Shown here piece after piece: positions 8,387 to 64,000 of a stretch of 64,000 nt of DNA. Numbering within the stretch: position 1 is the stretch's first letter; every line of letters starts with the position of its first letter. Under the pieces are notes generated by a model. The model did not search any database, had not been told where the DNA came from, and saw only the letters and a program-made list of their open reading frames with translations. This DNA comes from a virus. The DNA lies in IMG/VR virus record IMGVR_UViG_3300042922_000707, positions 12,233-76,232 of that record; one strand, 5' to 3'. The position numbers and the translations under genes are program-made.

Positions 8387-9760
8387 CTAAAATATGTACT
8401 CACTTGTCTGTATTACTTTGTTTTCTTTCTTATCCTTGGAACCTCGCTTTGCCTGTGGTTGCTCGTCTTCCTCCTCTTCCGGTCTGTCGAAAAGATTTAT
8501 AAAGCCCCTATCTATGTCCCACACAAATTCCTGCTTTCCACCAATGCCGTATCTATTCTTCGGAACATTTATCATAACTATGTTTCCTTTTCTTGCAAAT
8601 GTAACAACACGGGTGGCATCCTCACCTGCACTGTTACTCTCCATGAACTGGTGAGTCTCTGGTGCATCTATCTGGTCACTGCCATTCTTTTTGTTCTTGT
8701 CCCTACCCTTTGCCCAGTCTCTTCCTATCTGACCCGTAACTAATATAGGTATTCTCTTTTTGCTGGACAGTCTGTAAAAGTTTCTAGTAAGGAATATATA
8801 CCTCTCTCTTATTGTTCCAAACTTCTTAACTGTACCTATTAAGGAAAGTTGGTCAATGCCAACAATATCTGGCTTAATAATATCAATTAAATTCTCAATG
8901 TCCTCAAAAGTACATTGAGCGTTGTCCTCATTTGTGTAAACCATAAAATCTGGATTGTCTTCATCCTTAAGCTCTTCAAGATACTTAATATAGTCGTCCT
9001 TTGATAAATCAATTGGTACTATTCTACCCCCAACACTTTTATCAACTTTTCCGAGCTCTGTATTACCTTTCATAAGCCCAAGGTTACTAAAATTTCCATT
9101 CCATGTATCAAAACGGAAACCCACAAGGACTTTGCCCATCTCTCTACTTATTAAAAGTACTTTCTTTTTTGACCTACCCCATGCCGCCCACAAAAGGAAT
9201 AAAAGCAGCCATGACTTACCTTCACCAAGGTAACCACCAAGCATTACAAAGTCTTCTTCTTGCCAACCGTTAGTCAGGTCATCCAACCATTCCAAACCAG
9301 TGGGTATCCCTGTCAGACCCTTCATTTCCATTCTTTTCAAATAGTCATCTTTTCTAACATCTGTGTCTTTCGCTAAATTGTGACCCACATGCCTAAAGTC
9401 AAGCGTTTCTGCAATTTCCCTTAGTTGTGCCCTTAGGAAGTCAACGGCGTCAAAACTATCCTCTCTTAGCTTTTCGTCACCTTCTTTAAGTATTGGAACT
9501 ATTTTATTATAGACATACTGCTCTCGTAGTGAATTTACTAAATATTCCTCCGACTCACCTACCTTAAACACCTCAAAATCAGGGTATTTTGCAAGGAACG
9601 TGTGTATATCAGGAACCTGTCCTACTTTTCTCCAATGCGTATGTATAAATTCAAATTCTTCTTTACAAAATTCAAAATAAGTTTCATTTATTTTGTTTCT
9701 CTGTATTATACCAATATCTTTCTGCTCCAAAATGTGATTAATTATTTGATACTCTACCAA
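8387..9760 (-). CDS. DnaB-like replicative helicase
   Basis: GIPTG..LD, Walker A GYLGEGKS, ISREM, Walker B IVGIDQL, KNRYG; start moved to TTG at 9760 (AGGGAGGT RBS). Confidence 0.92.
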   Translation of the reverse strand: MVEYQIINHILEQKDIGIIQRNKINETYFEFCKEEFEFIHTHWRKVGQVPDIHTFLAKYPDFEVFKVGESEEYLVNSLREQYVYNKIVPILKEGDEKLREDSFDAVDFLRAQLREIAETLDFRHVGHNLAKDTDVRKDDYLKRMEMKGLTGIPTGLEWLDDLTNGWQEEDFVMLGGYLGEGKSWLLLFLLWAAWGRSKKKVLLISREMGKVLVGFRFDTWNGNFSNLGLMKGNTELGKVDKSVGGRIVPIDLSKDDYIKYLEELKDEDNPDFMVYTNEDNAQCTFEDIENLIDIIKPDIVGIDQLSLIGTVKKFGTIRERYIFLTRNFYRLSSKKRIPILVTGQIGRDWAKGRDKNKKNGSDQIDAPETHQFMESNSAGEDATRVVTFARKGNIVMINVPKNRYGIGGKQEFVWDIDRGFINLFDRPEEEEDEQPQAKRGSKDKKENKVIQTSEYIF

Positions 9761-9782
9761 GTCAATGACCTCCCTACAATAT

Positions 9783-9812
9783 AGTATAAACGAACTCAAC
9801 TACTTTTGTATT
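9783..9812 (-). promoter_or_regulatory. 18-bp-spacer class promoter (helicase-primase)
   Basis: AATACA-N18-TATACT, GA at spacer positions 10-11. Confidence 0.65.
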
Positions 9813-9930: not shown

Positions 9931-10650
9931 CTAAAAGCTCGAACGTAAGTCGGAGGACCTAACTTCATAGCACTCACACCCATTTACTATTCTGCTGTGC
10001 AACCTACTACCCAACACACCCTGCAATTTCTGTGGCGGTAGGTTACCAGTTAATATAAGTCCCCTGTCATTTGACAATGCAGAGTCTACAATATTAAAAA
10101 GTAAATCTAAGGTAGTTTTAGTCTGACCGTCAAACCCAATGTCATCAATCATTACTAAGTGGCTCTTATAAATGTTGTTATTTATTAATTCCAAAAAGTC
10201 GGACTTGTTTGAAAACCTAGCTTTATAAGTCTCTGCATATTGGCTGAATGGAACAAACAGCACAGGAGTAAATTCATTCTCAACGTACTCCATTATCCTA
10301 TACTCATTAATCATCCTTCTAAGGAAGTCGTTTAGCAGTACCAAGCCAAGTGAAGTTTTGCCCGAACCTACGTTTCCATATAGGTATATGCCCTTTGTAT
10401 AGTTAGCGTCGGATGTCAATCTCTTTATGTGCTCTACACCAAGGTCCACATCCTCCCTCACAATTTTGGATAAATCCTCTGGAACCCAATCCCTATACTT
10501 CTTAGGGACATTGTTTATTCCATAAATGTACTCTGTTTTATAGTAAACAGCACAGCCATCGTTGCACTGCCCTCTTCTGCACGTTCTGGAAACAGTGCAT
10601 TTATTCCTATCAAATACAAAGTCCTGTTCATCAAAACTCGTAAACTTCAT
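9931..10650 (-). CDS. DnaC/IstB-like helicase loader ATPase
   Basis: GIYLYGNVGSGKT, VMIDDIG, LTGN, RLHSRI. Confidence 0.88.
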   Translation of the reverse strand: MKFTSFDEQDFVFDRNKCTVSRTCRRGQCNDGCAVYYKTEYIYGINNVPKKYRDWVPEDLSKIVREDVDLGVEHIKRLTSDANYTKGIYLYGNVGSGKTSLGLVLLNDFLRRMINEYRIMEYVENEFTPVLFVPFSQYAETYKARFSNKSDFLELINNNIYKSHLVMIDDIGFDGQTKTTLDLLFNIVDSALSNDRGLILTGNLPPQKLQGVLGSRLHSRIVNGCECYEVRSSDLRSSF

Positions 10651-12263
10651 TATACCAAGCCTCCTATCCTTATATCTGTCCCGATACCATACACTTTCTC
10701 ATGTATAGCCTTTTGTATTTCATCGTATTCCTCATTTGCAGGTATCATAACATTTTCTACATAGTCCTCTAAATACATAAAGTCCTGTGAAGATATTTTA
10801 TCCTTAACCTCATCTGTAAGATATCCATTAACAAACCACCTACTTATGTACCTACCAAAACTTGGTATATCGTCATCCTCAAAGTAGTCATTTGGAACCC
10901 ATTTGATACGCCTCATATAATTTCTATCTTCTTTTCCATCAATAAGCCCGTACTTCTTTAGCCACTTGGGTTTCTCATGTTTCCACAACTCCATCAACTC
11001 AGGGAGCTTATCTCTATAGTCACTATCTTCTTTGTATACAACACTGCCTGACCCTGCCACAGTAGGAACTCCTGAATACTCGGACAAGTTTATTATCTGT
11101 TTTAAAATACTACCCTTATTATTTAATAGTAAATGAGCATAGATTGGATTTGGATAGCTTTCTAAGTCTAGTCCCTTTATCTTACCTTCACGGTAAGTCT
11201 CTAAAAATACATCAACCACCTTTGCCAGCTGTTCCATTGTTAATCCATAGGAACCATTCTGCTCATACAGTAGTTTAAATGTTCTGAAACTCCTTTCGCT
11301 TACCTTACATGCGGTGCCATAAATTTCCTTTAGTCGATGCTCATAGTATAAACATAACTCATCCACATTGAAATTCTTAAATTCCTTTTTACTTAATTTA
11401 TCTAAAAACTCTTGAGAAATTTTATCCTTCTTTTCTTGATGCTCTTTTTTCTTTTTCTGCTCTTTTAAACTTTTGGCTTCCTTATAGGACAAAGGTTTAT
11501 CAAAGTCCTCTTTTTTGATGTCTGTATTTAGAAGGTGAGTAAAAAATGATTTAGACTGAAAATGCGTAGCATTATTATTTTTTATATTTGTATTTTTTAT
11601 ATTTGTATGTTTCTGTGTGCGAGTTTCCGCATACGGTGGTGTGCGAGTTTCCGCACACGGGGGTGTGCAATTTCCCGTAACTTCCTTATTTCCTAAGTAC
11701 TCATCCAGCTCTTCCTTATCCTCAATACCACGTAAGCTATCAAAATACTCAATAAATTCATTTCTTTCTTTTAGCATTTCTTCATAATCTATCTCACTGT
11801 CTATGCCATTGTACCGCATAATTTCTTCTTTAGATAAACATTTCCATAAATCAAGGAAGTATAAAGTAGCCTCATTTATATGTAGGTCAAAGAATTTATT
11901 TATGTATTCTATGCTGTCATAGTAATCAATAATGCTCCTGTTTGAAATTCTGTAGATGTACCCCTTTTCCTCAATTCCTAATATCTTATCAAAAACCTGT
12001 CTTCTAGATATACCTAAATCACTTGCTATAGTTTCAACCCTTGGAAAAACAAAACCCTTGTAGCCAACTCCAGAATTTTTAAAATTGTATGATATCAAAT
12101 AAGCTATAACAAGCCTTTCATCTAATTTAAGTGCCTGGTCGGTCAATAGACTATTGGGTATAACTGTAACTCCATCACATCTTCCCATAAAATTATGGTT
12201 TATCCAATACCCCTTGACACTTGCTTTAAGCGACAATTCTGCGGTATTTTTGAAGTAGTTCAT
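10650..12263 (-). CDS. Phage replication initiator (N-terminal wHTH, lambda O-like architecture)
   Basis: FPRVETIASDLGISRRQV...EEKGYI HTH; internal iterons; adjacent to loader; start moved to MNYF (AAGGAGG RBS). Confidence 0.78.
   Translation of the reverse strand: MNYFKNTAELSLKASVKGYWINHNFMGRCDGVTVIPNSLLTDQALKLDERLVIAYLISYNFKNSGVGYKGFVFPRVETIASDLGISRRQVFDKILGIEEKGYIYRISNRSIIDYYDSIEYINKFFDLHINEATLYFLDLWKCLSKEEIMRYNGIDSEIDYEEMLKERNEFIEYFDSLRGIEDKEELDEYLGNKEVTGNCTPPCAETRTPPYAETRTQKHTNIKNTNIKNNNATHFQSKSFFTHLLNTDIKKEDFDKPLSYKEAKSLKEQKKKKEHQEKKDKISQEFLDKLSKKEFKNFNVDELCLYYEHRLKEIYGTACKVSERSFRTFKLLYEQNGSYGLTMEQLAKVVDVFLETYREGKIKGLDLESYPNPIYAHLLLNNKGSILKQIINLSEYSGVPTVAGSGSVVYKEDSDYRDKLPELMELWKHEKPKWLKKYGLIDGKEDRNYMRRIKWVPNDYFEDDDIPSFGRYISRWFVNGYLTDEVKDKISSQDFMYLEDYVENVMIPANEEYDEIQKAIHEKVYGIGTDIRIGGLV
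11571..11677. other. Putative phage replication origin (iterons plus AT-rich tract) inside the initiator gene
   Basis: 24-bp period repeats GTGTGCGAGTTTCCGCAYACGGKG at 11615 and 11639, partial at 11663; adjacent AT-rich TTTTTATATTTGTAT x2. Confidence 0.7.
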
Positions 12264-12780
12264 ATGCCTCCTCCTTATCCTTTGCGTCAATTATTATACT
12301 AAGTTGTGTATTGGATAATTCAGTTATTAGTACCGGGTAATCAAAATATGCGTGGGATAATGTTATGCCCTGTAACTCCTTAACCATACTAAAGAAGTCC
12401 CTCCAGTTGCCCATATAATTATCACACACCTTTAGCCAATCAAGTTCATAGAAGTCAAAGTAATGAGCAATTCCCATCAAGTAGCAGTACAACTTCAATT
12501 GCTCTGAACTAAGTTTCATTGCCAGTTCTATGGGAAGGTGTAACAAATTGCCCTTAGTGAACTCTTCACATTCTAAAAATGACTTGTAGTTTTCTGGCTC
12601 TGGTAACTCTCTTTTGCCAAAATTTAAGTGCATTGGACTACAGAAATCCACTATATGTATGTCTATTTTTATAAACTTTTTTGTCCTGTCATATATCATC
12701 TCTTGTTCCAATTTGGATATTTTTCTAAGTATGTGGTGAGACAATTCCGTACCATATAACTCAATGCCATCTAACTTCAT
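12226..12780 (-). CDS. Hypothetical protein
   Basis: AAGGAGG RBS; directly upstream of the initiator. Confidence 0.7.
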   Translation of the reverse strand: MKLDGIELYGTELSHHILRKISKLEQEMIYDRTKKFIKIDIHIVDFCSPMHLNFGKRELPEPENYKSFLECEEFTKGNLLHLPIELAMKLSSEQLKLYCYLMGIAHYFDFYELDWLKVCDNYMGNWRDFFSMVKELQGITLSHAYFDYPVLITELSNTQLSIIIDAKDKEEAYELLQKYRRIVA

Positions 12781-60986: not shown

Positions 60987-61533
60987 CTATAATTCCCTGC
61001 CACAGAATGGGCAGTGGGATATATCTATACGCTCTTTGTTTAGTAGAAGGTGCTTACCAAGAGTATCAAACTCCATAACCTTTTCCCTATAGTTTACAAT
61101 GACACGGAACGTTCCGGTTAGGCCCATAGCACATTGAAATATTCTAATCTGACTTGCTATCAAGCACCTGCATGTTGAAGTATGAGAAACTTCACAATCC
61201 GCCGCTCCCTGTTCACTTTCAAACTCAATTCCACATACTTCACATTTCCATTTACTTGCCTTCATCTTTAACTGCCTCCAACTTAAGTCTTTCCTTCAAT
61301 GCCACTATGTCATCAAGCTGTTTATTGATTAGCTTGCGGTCCATTCCCTTGTCAACAAATAACATCAGTACATACAATTCGTAAAGTTCCTCCGGTGTCT
61401 TATCTTTGGCTAAATATTCCATGTCATGCATAAATATTTTAGACTCATAGTTTTGTTTCACCTGCTCACGTACTCTGTGCATTCTCTCTGGACTAAATGG
61501 TTCAAAGACTCCTTTTACCTTAGACATAATCAT
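60987..61533 (-). CDS. Two hypothetical genes (60987-61265 Zn-binding; 61252-61533)
   Basis: CEVCG...CPFCGREL; first genes after the promoter at 61590. Confidence 0.6.
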
Positions 61534-61589
61534 TTCTCCTTTTTATAAAAGTTACCCAAACCGGGCACCTAAATACTTAAACTTAGTAC

Positions 61590-61619
61590 ATTATAAAACC
61601 ACTCAGCGCCAACTGTAAA
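61590..61619 (-). promoter_or_regulatory. 18-bp-spacer class promoter heading the early operon
   Basis: TTTACA-N18-TATAAT, GA at spacer positions 10-11. Confidence 0.8.
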
Positions 61620-61658
61620 CAAATTATATTTAGGAGTTTTGCGAGCAATTTTACGAGG

Positions 61659-61709
61659 GTATAAATGTATTACCCTACTATTTTTTATGCCCTAAAGGCA
61701 GAATTAAGG
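61659..61709 (+). repeat. 51-bp bipartite intergenic element, copy in opposite orientation
   Basis: GTATAAATGTATTAC-N19-TAAA-GGCAGAATTAAGG. Confidence 0.8.
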
Positions 61710-62255
61710 GGCTACAGTATGCACTAAAACAGCGTGGTTGTTATGTTTATTAAGTTTTGGCGAAGCCAACTGATGTGTGAGGGCATTTTCACTCTAAAAA
61801 GCGTGATTTAAGCGGATTAATCTAAAATATTGTGGATACTTCCCTTAATTTAACCTTAGTTAAGATTGTGTGGATACTTCCAACAGTTTGTGCTGTAAAT
61901 TGGCATTCAAGTGCTTACGCCAAACATTCATAACAGGATTTACTTTTATACGGCGTGGTAATGGGGTGGGGGCAACTTTAGACTTTTATATTAGTGCCAG
62001 ATAGTATTTTAGTGCCAGATAGTACAGATTAGCCAGAAATGGCAAAAATTTTACCAGAGGTTGACCAGCGATTTAGTAATTTACGGTTGGGCACTTAAAA
62101 TCAGGGTAAACTTAAGGTGCCAAACAAGGGTGCCAACAGGAAATGCAGGCGTCAAGTCAGAAATGAAGAAATTCACTCAAATTGATATCAAGGACCATGT
62201 TATGCCAGCAGACAGTCGGGGTGTGACTTACGCTCTGGCCGGGTCACTTTCCCAC

Positions 62256-62698
62256 TTATCCACAGGATGTTGACAACTTGGCAGGGGTTGTGGATAACTA
62301 TTCCCGTATTGTGGACAACTTTGTGGATAATTTTAGCCAGGGTGTGGATAAAAATGTGGACAACTTGACGCAACTTTATTGTGGATAACTGTGCCAAACT
62401 GTGGATAACTAGTCAGCATGTGCATAACCCCCTTAAATTGTGGATAACTTGACAGCCTGTGCATAACTGCGATTAACTGTGGATAACTTGCCAGCCTGTG
62501 GATAAGTGTAATAAATTGTGGATAAGTGTTTGGCTTGTGGATAACTGCCAAATATTGTGGATAAGTAAAAAGCTGTGGATAACTTGACTAGCTGTGGATA
62601 AGTAGGCGCCTGTGGATAAAATTGTTAATAAGTTGTTGACAAGCTGTGTATAACTTTGACTGCCTGTGCTGTGGATAACTGCCCTAAACTGTGGATAA
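62256..62698. repeat. Dense DnaA-box array (about 25 boxes)
   Basis: 16 TGTGGATAA plus 1 TTATCCACA perfect; 2 TGTGCATAA, 1 TGTGTATAA, 2 TGTGGACAA, 3 two-mismatch boxes. Confidence 0.95.
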
Positions 62699-62774
62699 AA
62701 ATGGGTATTTTAAGCTAAATATCGAGCTCGTAAAAGGGCATTAAAGGGCAGAAAAAGGAGGCATAATACAAATG

Positions 62775-62944
62775 TACCCCTAAAATAAATGAGCGTCAAA
62801 GGTAATTAACGCATGCCAAAACAATTTTTAGTCGCTTATGCGTTTTCCCTATATATATAGTAATAGCATGGACAATTATAATAAAACAGCTTTGGCACTT
62901 TACCTGCCTTTTGGCACCGGTGTGGCTGTTTTATTTTAGGGGTA
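62775..62944. repeat. Perfect 15-bp inverted repeat, 140-bp spacer
   Basis: TACCCCTAAAATAAA (62775-62789) and TTTATTTTAGGGGTA (62930-62944). Confidence 0.75.
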
Positions 62945-63290
62945 TAAAAGTATGGGCAAGGGTGGGAACGTGTGGCAGTGGCCCGTTTACGAGCTGGCTG
63001 TTTGTGGGCAATTGGAGTGCTTGGCGGAATTAAGGGCTGTGGGAGCTTAAAATCGGATTTAAGGCAAGAACAATTGATATCAGCAGGCAACACAGTCGTT
63101 TTCCAAGTATTGCGTCAAAGTAGCACAAACGAGCTTGAGGGGCATAATACAACAGTTTTCTGGCGTGTATACTATAAAAATAATCTCTCACATTTTACAA
63201 AGTATTATTATACAATATTGTCACATTATTATGCAATAAAACAGTAGTCCACAGCCTAGTCATTGGAGCGTATACAGCCATTGTCTTTGT

Positions 63291-63736
63291 AAGTGCCTAA
63301 AATAGCCTACAGCCCCTATGTACAAACTAATCCTAAAAATGTACAGTTGTACAGTAAGTCGCTTGTCAAAGTGTTTTAAGTGCTGTCACGTTTATGTTTA
63401 CATTTGCTTATATATCTGTTTATGTGTTATTGTTTATATTTGTCGTATATATAATAATAGTTACCTGCCCTATTGATACCCGGCCGCCGTTTTTCCTTAC
63501 TTAATAGCCACAAAGTACTGTAGCCAGCTTTATACAGTTTTCCCATTATTTGCGTGACAGGCAATTTAACGAGCTGTCAAAGGTAAAGGCTGTCAAGTGC
63601 CTAAAATAGCCCACAGTACGTGCCAGCTATTGTTTGGGAAAAATATATAGTTGTTTATGCTTATCCTATTAATGCATGCTATAAACAGTTACCTGCCCTA
63701 TTTGGTACCCGGCCCCGGATTTTTAATACTTAGTGG
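63291..63736 (+). repeat. Two interleaved direct repeat pairs
   Basis: AAGTGCCTAAAATAGCCYACAG at 63291 and 63595; AGTTACCTGCCCTATT...TACCCGGCC at 63459 and 63687. Confidence 0.75.
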
Positions 63737-64000
63737 ACAATAGTTTAAATGGCTACAATAAAGCAATTGCAATATCTACAGGCTACAGTGCCCAAAACGG
63801 CGCCTAACAAATGTTCACATACATGTTAGTATATTTATACCTTAGTGCCAAACATGCATTTTCCAGCCACAAATGCCATAAATTGCCGTTTAATGCATGT
63901 TCGTTATTGCTACATGCTAAAATACTATAATAATTAAATATGTACTAAAAAGCCTGGTACCTGCTCATTTTACCTGCTTTACCGGCTGGCGTACTTTTTA

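Follow-up and report, generated by a model that had tools for sequence, protein, structure and literature searches.

Why would a phage that encodes its own replication machinery carry a dense array of binding sites for DnaA, the replication initiator of its host? The question is raised by a 443-bp element (62256-62698) in the virus record IMGVR_UViG_3300042922_000707 of IMG/VR. The DNA analyzed here (hereafter the window, in whose coordinates positions are given unless stated otherwise) comprises the last 64 kb of this 76,232-bp record, that is, positions 12,233 to 76,232. An original prediction, made from the letters alone, had described the element as an array of DnaA boxes and had read it as a candidate DNA decoy that titrates the host initiator. 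Our analysis indicates that the array belongs to the phage and is kept there by selection, and suggests that it probably captures host DnaA.

A dense and ordered array of DnaA boxes

The array contains 25 boxes, of which 17 are perfect, five have one mismatch and three have two, and every coordinate originally given was recovered. One perfect box, TTATCCACA, stands on the plus strand at 62256. The remaining perfect boxes appear as TGTGGATAA at 62289, 62322, 62343, 62380, 62400, 62439, 62478, 62497, 62517, 62536, 62556, 62574, 62593, 62611, 62670 and 62690. One-mismatch boxes were located at 62310, 62355, 62419, 62458 and 62645, and two-mismatch boxes at 62268, 62623 and 62634, in the numbers that had been predicted. 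The near-uniform orientation also held, with 24 of the 25 boxes pointing the same way. Perfect and one-mismatch boxes together occupy 198 of the 443 bp. The array and its parts are as follows.

62256-62698, minus strand: DnaA-box array, in which 24 boxes give TTATCCACA when read on the minus strand, where all phage genes lie
62256-62363, minus strand: promoter-proximal part, with the inverted perfect box at 62256 and its weak partner at 62268, 3 bp apart
62380-62619, minus strand: core, 13 boxes at 18-20-bp steps (mean about 19.5)
62611-62653, minus strand: close-packed run of four boxes at 12-, 11- and 11-bp steps (perfect, two-mismatch, two-mismatch, one-mismatch)
62670-62698, minus strand: terminal boxes, two perfect boxes 20 bp apart

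After the inverted box, the steps in the promoter-proximal part are 21, 12, 21 and 12 bp, which yields two double boxes with a 3-bp gap (62310 with 62322, and 62343 with 62355). The core is made of a 39-bp super-repeat of two boxes whose spacers have since diverged. A scan allowing two mismatches, together with inspection of the spacers, found no hidden weak boxes that would turn every box into a double box. The whole 64-kb window holds 20 perfect boxes compared with 0.97 expected from shuffles, none of which gave 20, and their density is 38 per kb in the array versus 0.049 per kb in the rest of the window. The 1.1 Mb around 80 relatives of the phage terminase contained 17 boxes (0.015 per kb) and no cluster.

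The boxes are conserved in a sister phage

A sister phage is represented by a 75,238-bp IMG/VR contig from another metagenome, whose structural proteins match those of the phage studied here at 97-99% identity and whose ligase does so at 82%. It carries the same array at the syntenic place (L123:1294-1735), in which 14 boxes are perfect and about 11 have one mismatch, a single box differing in orientation. Between the two phages, the box columns are identical at 210 of 217 positions (96.8%) and the spacers at 167 of 215 (77.7%), a difference with an odds ratio of 8.6 (Fisher p = 7e-10); the array flanks are 83-86% identical. Some spacers are entirely different while the boxes that adjoin them are unaltered. 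Two of the five box substitutions are changes of G to A at position 5, which the E. coli consensus gives as N; one weak box of the 62611-62653 run is deleted in the sister phage, and a 60-bp block next to the boxes at 62670-62698 is 100% conserved. Because the box columns are conserved while the spacers diverge, this comparison indicates that the boxes are under purifying selection and that the array is selectively maintained. Both strains occur in one soil metagenome run, whose contigs tile the region and show no chimeric join. These contigs and the agreement of the contig from the second metagenome bear out that the array is contiguous with the phage, a point on which the original prediction had called for confirmation.

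Host DnaA is the likely binder

In a logo of the boxes and their flanks, only the 9-mer and an A at position -2 carry information, with free spacers. Within the 9-mer, only positions 3 (A to G) and 5 (C to G or A) vary. These are the positions at which DnaA boxes tolerate variation between sites and between phyla, as seen in the E. coli form TT(A/T)TNCACA and in the high-GC Gram-positive consensus TTGTCCACA. Since the positions that vary are those known to vary in DnaA boxes, the element is predicted to be a selected DnaA-binding array. No DnaA domain IV is encoded in the 76-kb record, and the same 9-mer is arrayed in unrelated phages with unrelated proteins. Host DnaA is thus a very likely binder, as judged from the sites themselves.

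A protein-sponge RNA for CsrA (CsrB type), in which every repeat would carry an invariant GGA, was also considered and was rejected, as no position of the repeat varies more than the second G of GGA (TGTGCATAA, TGTGTATAA) and Rfam gave no match in 61400-64000.

The phasing is rare and looser clusters recur sporadically in phages

A pattern of four perfect co-oriented boxes at steps of 19, 18-20 and 18-20 bp was found in only two of 185,579 species genomes of bacteria and archaea. Each match is an exact 19-bp tandem repeat, and one is archaeal. The latter, in a metagenome-assembled genome of a Nitrosopumilaceae archaeon (L282:4883-5761), consists of about 30 exact 19-bp tandem repeats, each with TTATCCACA; it is probably a minisatellite that matches by coincidence, and an archaeon should have no DnaA. 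Because the 18-20-bp phasing occurs in these genomes only in such trivial tandem repeats, the phage array is not a chromosomal copy.

Within IMG/VR, the 18-20-bp-phased pattern was found in the sister phage only. Looser clusters, with three perfect co-oriented boxes at 17-21-bp steps, are not uncommon in phages and are present in at least 119 IMG/VR contigs, and among the matches listed, seven loci (six phage records) have 12-23 boxes. These other phage clusters lie in gene-free DNA and mostly have 11-12- and 21-bp steps. A large terminase gene was within reach in 33 of the 119 loci listed; the cluster was upstream of it in 33 of 33, at a distance of 0.24-1.7 kb in 28. This looks like a DnaA-box module that is positionally conserved upstream of the terminase in a large clade of mostly marine phages. 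In the record IMGVR_UViG_3300043009_000020 (L012:12862-13347), we observed a 486-bp stretch with 23 perfect boxes, of which 22 share an orientation, at irregular steps of 12-46 bp; this array runs into the contig end and its flanking proteins have no known family.

Relatives of the carriers can lack such arrays. The suggestion that related phages be scanned for boxes at the syntenic position was rewarded in the sister phage, and not in a complete distant relative (TerL 41% identical), which has two boxes in 72.6 kb. Likewise, a complete 36.4-kb pelagiphage-like record (L043, G007) has a single array of 12 perfect boxes 242 bp upstream of the terminase gene and none elsewhere, and its cultured relative Pelagibacter phage Baldr (OQ414636.1), whose terminase is 58% identical to that of G007, has no perfect box. 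Since the distant relative is without an array and comparable arrays are absent from the kin of unrelated carriers, the array behaves as an accessory feature that is sporadic among relatives. Our literature search returned no paper describing a DnaA-box decoy in a phage, and the only published phage case that it found is the injection-stop region of T5, with eight DnaA boxes, for which a role has been proposed (bioRxiv 10.1101/866236).

A proposed sink for host DnaA

We tentatively favor, and rank first, a sink that acts in trans on DnaA and grows with phage copy number. It is the best reading of the array because the sites are overwhelmingly of the perfect, nucleotide-state-independent type, far outnumber what promoters or origins use, form an accessory feature, and are delivered at a dose that scales with genome copies. 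Each copy of the phage genome would contribute 22-25 strong sites, and about 100 copies would thus offer thousands of them, more than the strong sites on a bacterial chromosome. As free DnaA fell, new rounds of initiation on the host chromosome would be blocked and DnaA-repressed genes would be de-repressed. Extra DnaA boxes on plasmids, datA of E. coli, and the DnaA-box clusters of B. subtilis do restrain initiation.

The phage itself might also profit from the de-repression. In model bacteria, dnaN belongs to the dnaA operon, which is autoregulated (repressed) by DnaA. The phage encodes a clamp loader of the DnaX type (336-1406) and no sliding clamp gene was found in the 76-kb record (no DNA_pol3_beta); its replisome presumably borrows the host clamp. 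A speculative benefit would therefore be that de-repressed dnaN supplies clamp to a phage that has the loader and no clamp. The step of 19.5 bp (about 6.6 nm) would allow each site to be filled without contact with its neighbor. Taken jointly, these proposals amount to a DNA-only weapon against the host that drains the initiator, stops host initiation and de-represses dnaA-dnaN for the clamp, with the 18-20-bp phasing serving independent filling; this combination is possible, and we hold it with considerable doubt.

Several points weigh against a sink. One infecting genome adds only about 25 sites, so that an effect in trans would come late and would be of weaker benefit to a lytic phage. A role in cis would likewise fit the location, which is at the head of the gene array and 0.64 kb before the first early promoter. 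The conservation described above is that seen in one close relative only. Chromatin immunoprecipitation sequencing in E. coli placed DnaA in vivo mainly on double boxes 2-3 bp apart, with 13 of 32 perfect single boxes bound (Stringer, Fitzgerald and Wade 2024, PMC11317965), and in our array only two double boxes and one four-box run appear close-packed, the other boxes being 18-20 bp apart. By the double-box rule of E. coli, only part of the array would be ideal; this is a real caveat, though the host is not E. coli. Finally, the phage encodes a preQ0 / 7-deazaguanine pathway, and modification of the three G's of TGTGG could cost DnaA its major-groove recognition on mature DNA. No TGT/DpdA gene was found in the 76-kb record, which is incomplete.

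On balance, the decoy that was originally proposed is strengthened by the phage-borne, selected and non-origin context of the array and by the phage's own replication kit, and is weakened by the contrast between the double-box preference in E. coli and the 18-20-bp spacing. It is plausible and consistent with all of the sequence tests made, which would fit uses of bound DnaA in cis as well.

If a sink for DnaA is indeed its role, the array would have wider meaning. Phages attack host replication with proteins. A decoy made of DNA only, with a dose that rises automatically with phage replication, would follow a different principle, and it would be the first case of a nucleic acid acting as decoy for a host replication protein. 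No natural example encountered here sets out many perfect DnaA boxes at a non-helical step of 18-20 bp more cleanly, and the array offers a ready substrate for studying DnaA occupancy of single versus paired sites, the DnaA box being nearly universal. Seen alongside T5 and the clusters of other phages, it suggests that virulent phages make recurrent use of host DnaA, which has gone unstudied.

Genomic setting and a possible role in cis

The last minus-strand gene begins at 61533, and the array lies beyond it in the only large gene-free region of the phage.

61534-64000: gene-free region with the array, about 2.5 kb, reaching the contig end
61590-61619, minus strand: promoter TTTACA-N18-TATAAT, the rightmost of the phage class TTTACA-N18-TATAMT
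61697-61709, plus strand: phage motif GGCAGAATTAAGG, on the promoter side of the array
61823-61881, minus strand: two near-boxes GTATCCACA (61831 and 61869) in a 21-nt direct repeat, between the array and the promoter
63023-63035, plus strand: phage motif GGCGGAATTAAGG, on the far side of the array

The promoter at 61590-61619 is the sole strong one in this region. It is also the first early promoter and lies 637 bp from the array, on its downstream side. Two short open reading frames (85 and 91 amino acids) at 62836-63247 are the only ones in the region, and we take them to be chance occurrences.

This setting brings up a gate or insulator of transcription, in which bound DnaA would act as a roadblock or boundary before the early genes, or would couple the early promoter to the DnaA level. 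DnaA is a transcription factor and a roadblock (literature cited in PMC11317965), and the array is placed between the gene-free DNA on its right and the promoter. The two near-boxes, which are kept in the sister phage, lie 212-250 bp upstream of the promoter, and a promoter-like TTTACG-N16-TAAAAT (62734-62707, minus strand) that is fully conserved in the sister phage is directed into the array. However, the array is 0.64-1.1 kb upstream of the sole strong promoter, which is far for direct control, and the phage's own promoter class has no copy to the right of the array. The element facing the array matches at 9 of 12 positions only, and such matches are no commoner than in shuffles (12 here versus 8.0 +/- 3.1). 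Moreover, 25 sites are far above the use made by any known DnaA-regulated promoter. A gate is an unlikely role in our estimation.

The motif GGCRGAATTAAGG, which had been noted as phage-specific and as flanking the array, was confirmed at 61697 and 63023. It occurs in seven copies in the window compared with 0.21 expected, five of them in addition to the pair that flanks the array. Its strand was observed to be minus at the five sites among the genes and plus at the two array-flanking copies. Because of the copy at 63023, the DNA beyond the array is regarded as still being phage DNA, and at least 1.3 kb of it is phage-like in sequence.

Other features of the gene-free region were observed in the comparison with the sister phage. 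Blocks of near-perfect identity lie at 61640-61960, 62160-62255, 62699-62760, 62830-62870 and 62950-63110, and the region is otherwise 80-88% identical. At 63291-63702, AAGTGCCTAAAATAGCC(T/C)ACAG recurs at a distance of 304 bp and A(T/C)AGTTACCTGCCCTATT at one of 228 bp; the sister phage has kept both repeats in part.

Gene content of the phage and the question of an origin

The phage, uncultured and from soil, is a virulent-looking siphovirus in which nearly all open reading frames longer than 170 amino acids are on the minus strand. Its genes include those for a large terminase (13 kb from the array), portal, tape measure, ATP-dependent ligase, superfamily 2 (SF2) helicase and family-A polymerase (PolA), as well as a primase, a DnaB-type helicase, an AAA+ loader, an HTH_36 protein and the clamp loader. 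The replication genes that bear on the origin are the following.

8387-9799, minus strand: DnaB-type replicative helicase
9931-10650, minus strand: helicase loader, a 239-amino-acid AAA+ protein of the DnaA/DnaC type without the DnaA DNA-binding domain
10650-12290, minus strand: putative replication initiator, 546 amino acids, with an HTH_36 domain
11576-11675, minus strand: candidate phage origin, an AT-rich 15-mer and a 24-nt iteron inside the initiator-like gene

In this candidate, 2.5 copies of the AT-rich 15-mer (11576-11612) abut 2.6 copies of a palindrome-containing 24-nt iteron (11615-11675), and the whole is 100% identical in the sister phage. In contrast to the array, it has the make-up of an iteron-type origin, and it is likely the phage's own. 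The claim that initiator, origin, loader, helicase, primase and polymerase are all the phage's own thus agrees with what was found: an initiator-like gene, an iteron and AT-rich candidate within it, and the rest of the kit.

No tyrosine integrase and no ParA were found in the record, and hence there is no sign of lysogeny or of a plasmid state; the plasmid-prophage alternative that had been offered alongside the decoy found no support. A blastn search of 61500-64000 against 50,697 phage records gave no match to cultured relatives, and the terminase has no cultured relative above 24% identity. In a protein atlas the terminase falls among 'Viruses' only. Terminase alignments in IMG/VR and metagenomes returned relatives of at most 42% identity only, homologues at 86, 80, 66 and 49% identity also exist, and the ligase alignment had no relatives in the metagenome collection. 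The endolysin consists of an M23 peptidase alone, and SPRY and F5/8 domains occur in the tail proteins. We regard the host as 'Bacillota-like', which is not a firm call, on the basis of strong Shine-Dalgarno sites, 39% GC and the presence of sigma-70-type promoters only.

Could the array nevertheless be an origin? It has the box cluster of an oriC, without an unwinding element or DnaA-trios directly beside the boxes and without synteny with dnaA, dnaN or rpmH in the 76-kb record. As predicted, there is no run of DnaA-trios in 61534-64000. The array edges have 32-43% GC, and the nearest tract below 25% GC (18% GC) is 470 bp away. The absence of dnaA and dnaN from the vicinity, also predicted, extends to the entire record, in which the sole Bac_DnaA match is the 239-amino-acid loader. 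The array is probably not the origin, because no unwinding element or DnaA-trio abuts it, dnaA and dnaN are lacking, and the phage has an origin candidate of its own elsewhere.

An auxiliary or first-round origin is a variant of this idea: at a time when no phage initiator exists yet, DnaA would open nearby DNA and pass it on to the loader and helicase of the phage. Plasmid origins and that of P1 use DnaA boxes. The two double boxes and the close-packed run of strong, weak, weak and medium sites resemble an oriC oligomerisation region, the array occupies the sole large gene-free region, and the phage loader is of the DnaA/DnaC type. Against this stand the missing DnaA-trios, the distance of 470 bp to the nearest strongly AT-rich tract, and the textbook iteron and AT-rich candidate 50 kb away in the initiator-like gene. 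In addition, 17 perfect boxes at 18-20-bp steps are unlike any origin among the 185,579 species genomes, and the complete distant relative does without such an array. An origin that depends on DnaA is thus, in our judgment, improbable.

Iterons of a protein encoded by the phage, or of another protein, might merely resemble DnaA boxes. The 18-20-bp phasing is typical of iterons and unlike the spacing that E. coli DnaA prefers in vivo, and most early proteins of the phage have no known family. However, iterons are usually conserved over 17-22 bp, and here conservation is limited to the 9-mer with its spacers free. The 9-mer is the exact universal DnaA consensus and varies where DnaA tolerates it, such 9-mers are arrayed in unrelated phages with unrelated proteins, and no DnaA domain IV is available from the phage. 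Full-length repeats of 17-22 bp beside an initiator gene, as in an iteron-type origin, were not what we found: 9-10 bp are conserved and the initiator-like gene is 50 kb away. Iterons for a binder other than DnaA are accordingly quite unlikely.

Contig ends and the remaining readings

The two contigs have exactly 127 identical bases at each of their ends (window 63874-64000 and genome 1-127), followed by a mismatch. These ends are k=127 junctions of the de Bruijn graph, at which two co-occurring strains merge into a shared segment. Owing to these junctions, the record is incomplete and its ends are not genome termini, despite a CheckV value of 100%. A real DNA terminus, which the shared contig ends and a falling depth might have indicated, was rejected, the 127-base identity marking an assembly junction. 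The apparent drop of depth in the last bin reflects the last 97 bases, which are not covered by contigs of the soil run. At the left end of the genome (L124:1-1135, outside the window), a Gat-QueC fusion gene is cut in the middle of its QueC domain. The cut gene, the absence of DpdA/TGT despite preQ0, and the uncovered last 97 bases are all accounted for by contigs that end at k=127 junctions. The rest of the QueC domain and the TGT/DpdA gene presumably lie in the missing shared segment, of which an IMG/VR search past the contig ends found nothing. No terminal repeat was found in the contig, whose ends are assembly junctions.

These ends bear on a further reading by analogy, the anchoring or pausing of phage DNA through membrane-associated DnaA, after the proposal of Davison for the injection stop of T5. 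Phages of the T5 type keep eight DnaA boxes in the gene-free part of the terminal repeat (bioRxiv 10.1101/866236), our array is likewise in gene-free DNA at the head of the gene order, and in 33 of 119 other array-bearing IMG/VR loci the cluster is upstream of the large terminase gene, a place that frequently borders genome ends. However, the contig ends are assembly junctions and not physical ends of the genome, and the T5 model is itself a proposal only. The T5 boxes are paired inside large inverted repeats and those of the array are not. Moreover, arrays in large contigs are not significantly close to the ends (9 versus 4.6 expected within 3 kb; Kolmogorov-Smirnov p = 0.19). Anchoring may be seen as a long shot.

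An artefact is hardly credible: the array has a 39-bp tandem super-repeat and lies on a contig that is not closed, yet a chimera with a host oriC is very unlikely given the second contig from another metagenome that repeats array and flanks, the soil-run contigs that tile the region and the GGCRGAATTAAGG copies on both sides, dnaA and dnaN are missing from the record, and a neutral minisatellite would sit poorly with conserved boxes between divergent spacers.

Comparison with known systems

The preferred reading, a sink for host DnaA, can be set against several systems in which DnaA boxes are clustered. The DnaA-oligomerisation regions of oriC are like the array in that their boxes are co-oriented, stand close together in a few runs with gaps of 2-3 bp, and include one of opposite orientation at an edge. 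They differ in that the array has no unwinding element, DnaA-trios or flanking dnaA/dnaN, in that it has far too many perfect boxes, and in its dominant 18-20-bp step, which is not found in bacterial genomes.

The closest functional parallels are datA and the six DnaA-box clusters of B. subtilis, which are also high-affinity box clusters outside the origin, without an unwinding element, that are proposed to lower free or active DnaA. Whereas datA has about five boxes, the array has 25 in 443 bp, 17 of them perfect. The datA and B. subtilis clusters are chromosomal; the array is phage-borne and 18-20-bp phased, and its dose would rise with phage replication. datA requires IHF. Of the features that define a cluster of the datA type, the array shows high-affinity boxes away from the origin and lacks an IHF site among them: the IHF consensus WATCAANNNNTTR does not occur in 61534-64000, in a phage whose host may not use IHF at all.

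With the double boxes of the E. coli DnaA regulon (PMC11317965), the array has in common the pairs 62310+62322 and 62343+62355, which have a 3-bp gap. Unlike them, its boxes are mostly single, 9-11 bp from their neighbors, and none stands beside a promoter. The iss region of T5 (bioRxiv 10.1101/866236) resembles it in having conserved boxes, in gene-free DNA, in a virulent phage that does not need DnaA to replicate. The eight boxes of that region, of which half depart from the consensus, are paired with a 3-bp gap within large inverted repeats of the terminal repeat. The array, in contrast, has 25 boxes, 24 co-oriented, mostly perfect and mostly single, with two 3-bp pairs and no large inverted repeats around them.

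The clusters of other uncultured phages also consist of co-oriented perfect boxes in gene-free DNA and are sporadic among relatives. Many of them lie 0.2-1.7 kb upstream of the large terminase gene, unlike the present array, which is set apart further by its 18-20-bp steps and by having more perfect boxes than all but one of them. The array is thus an extreme case of the DnaA-box clusters that occur outside origins, one that is phage-borne and uniquely phased.

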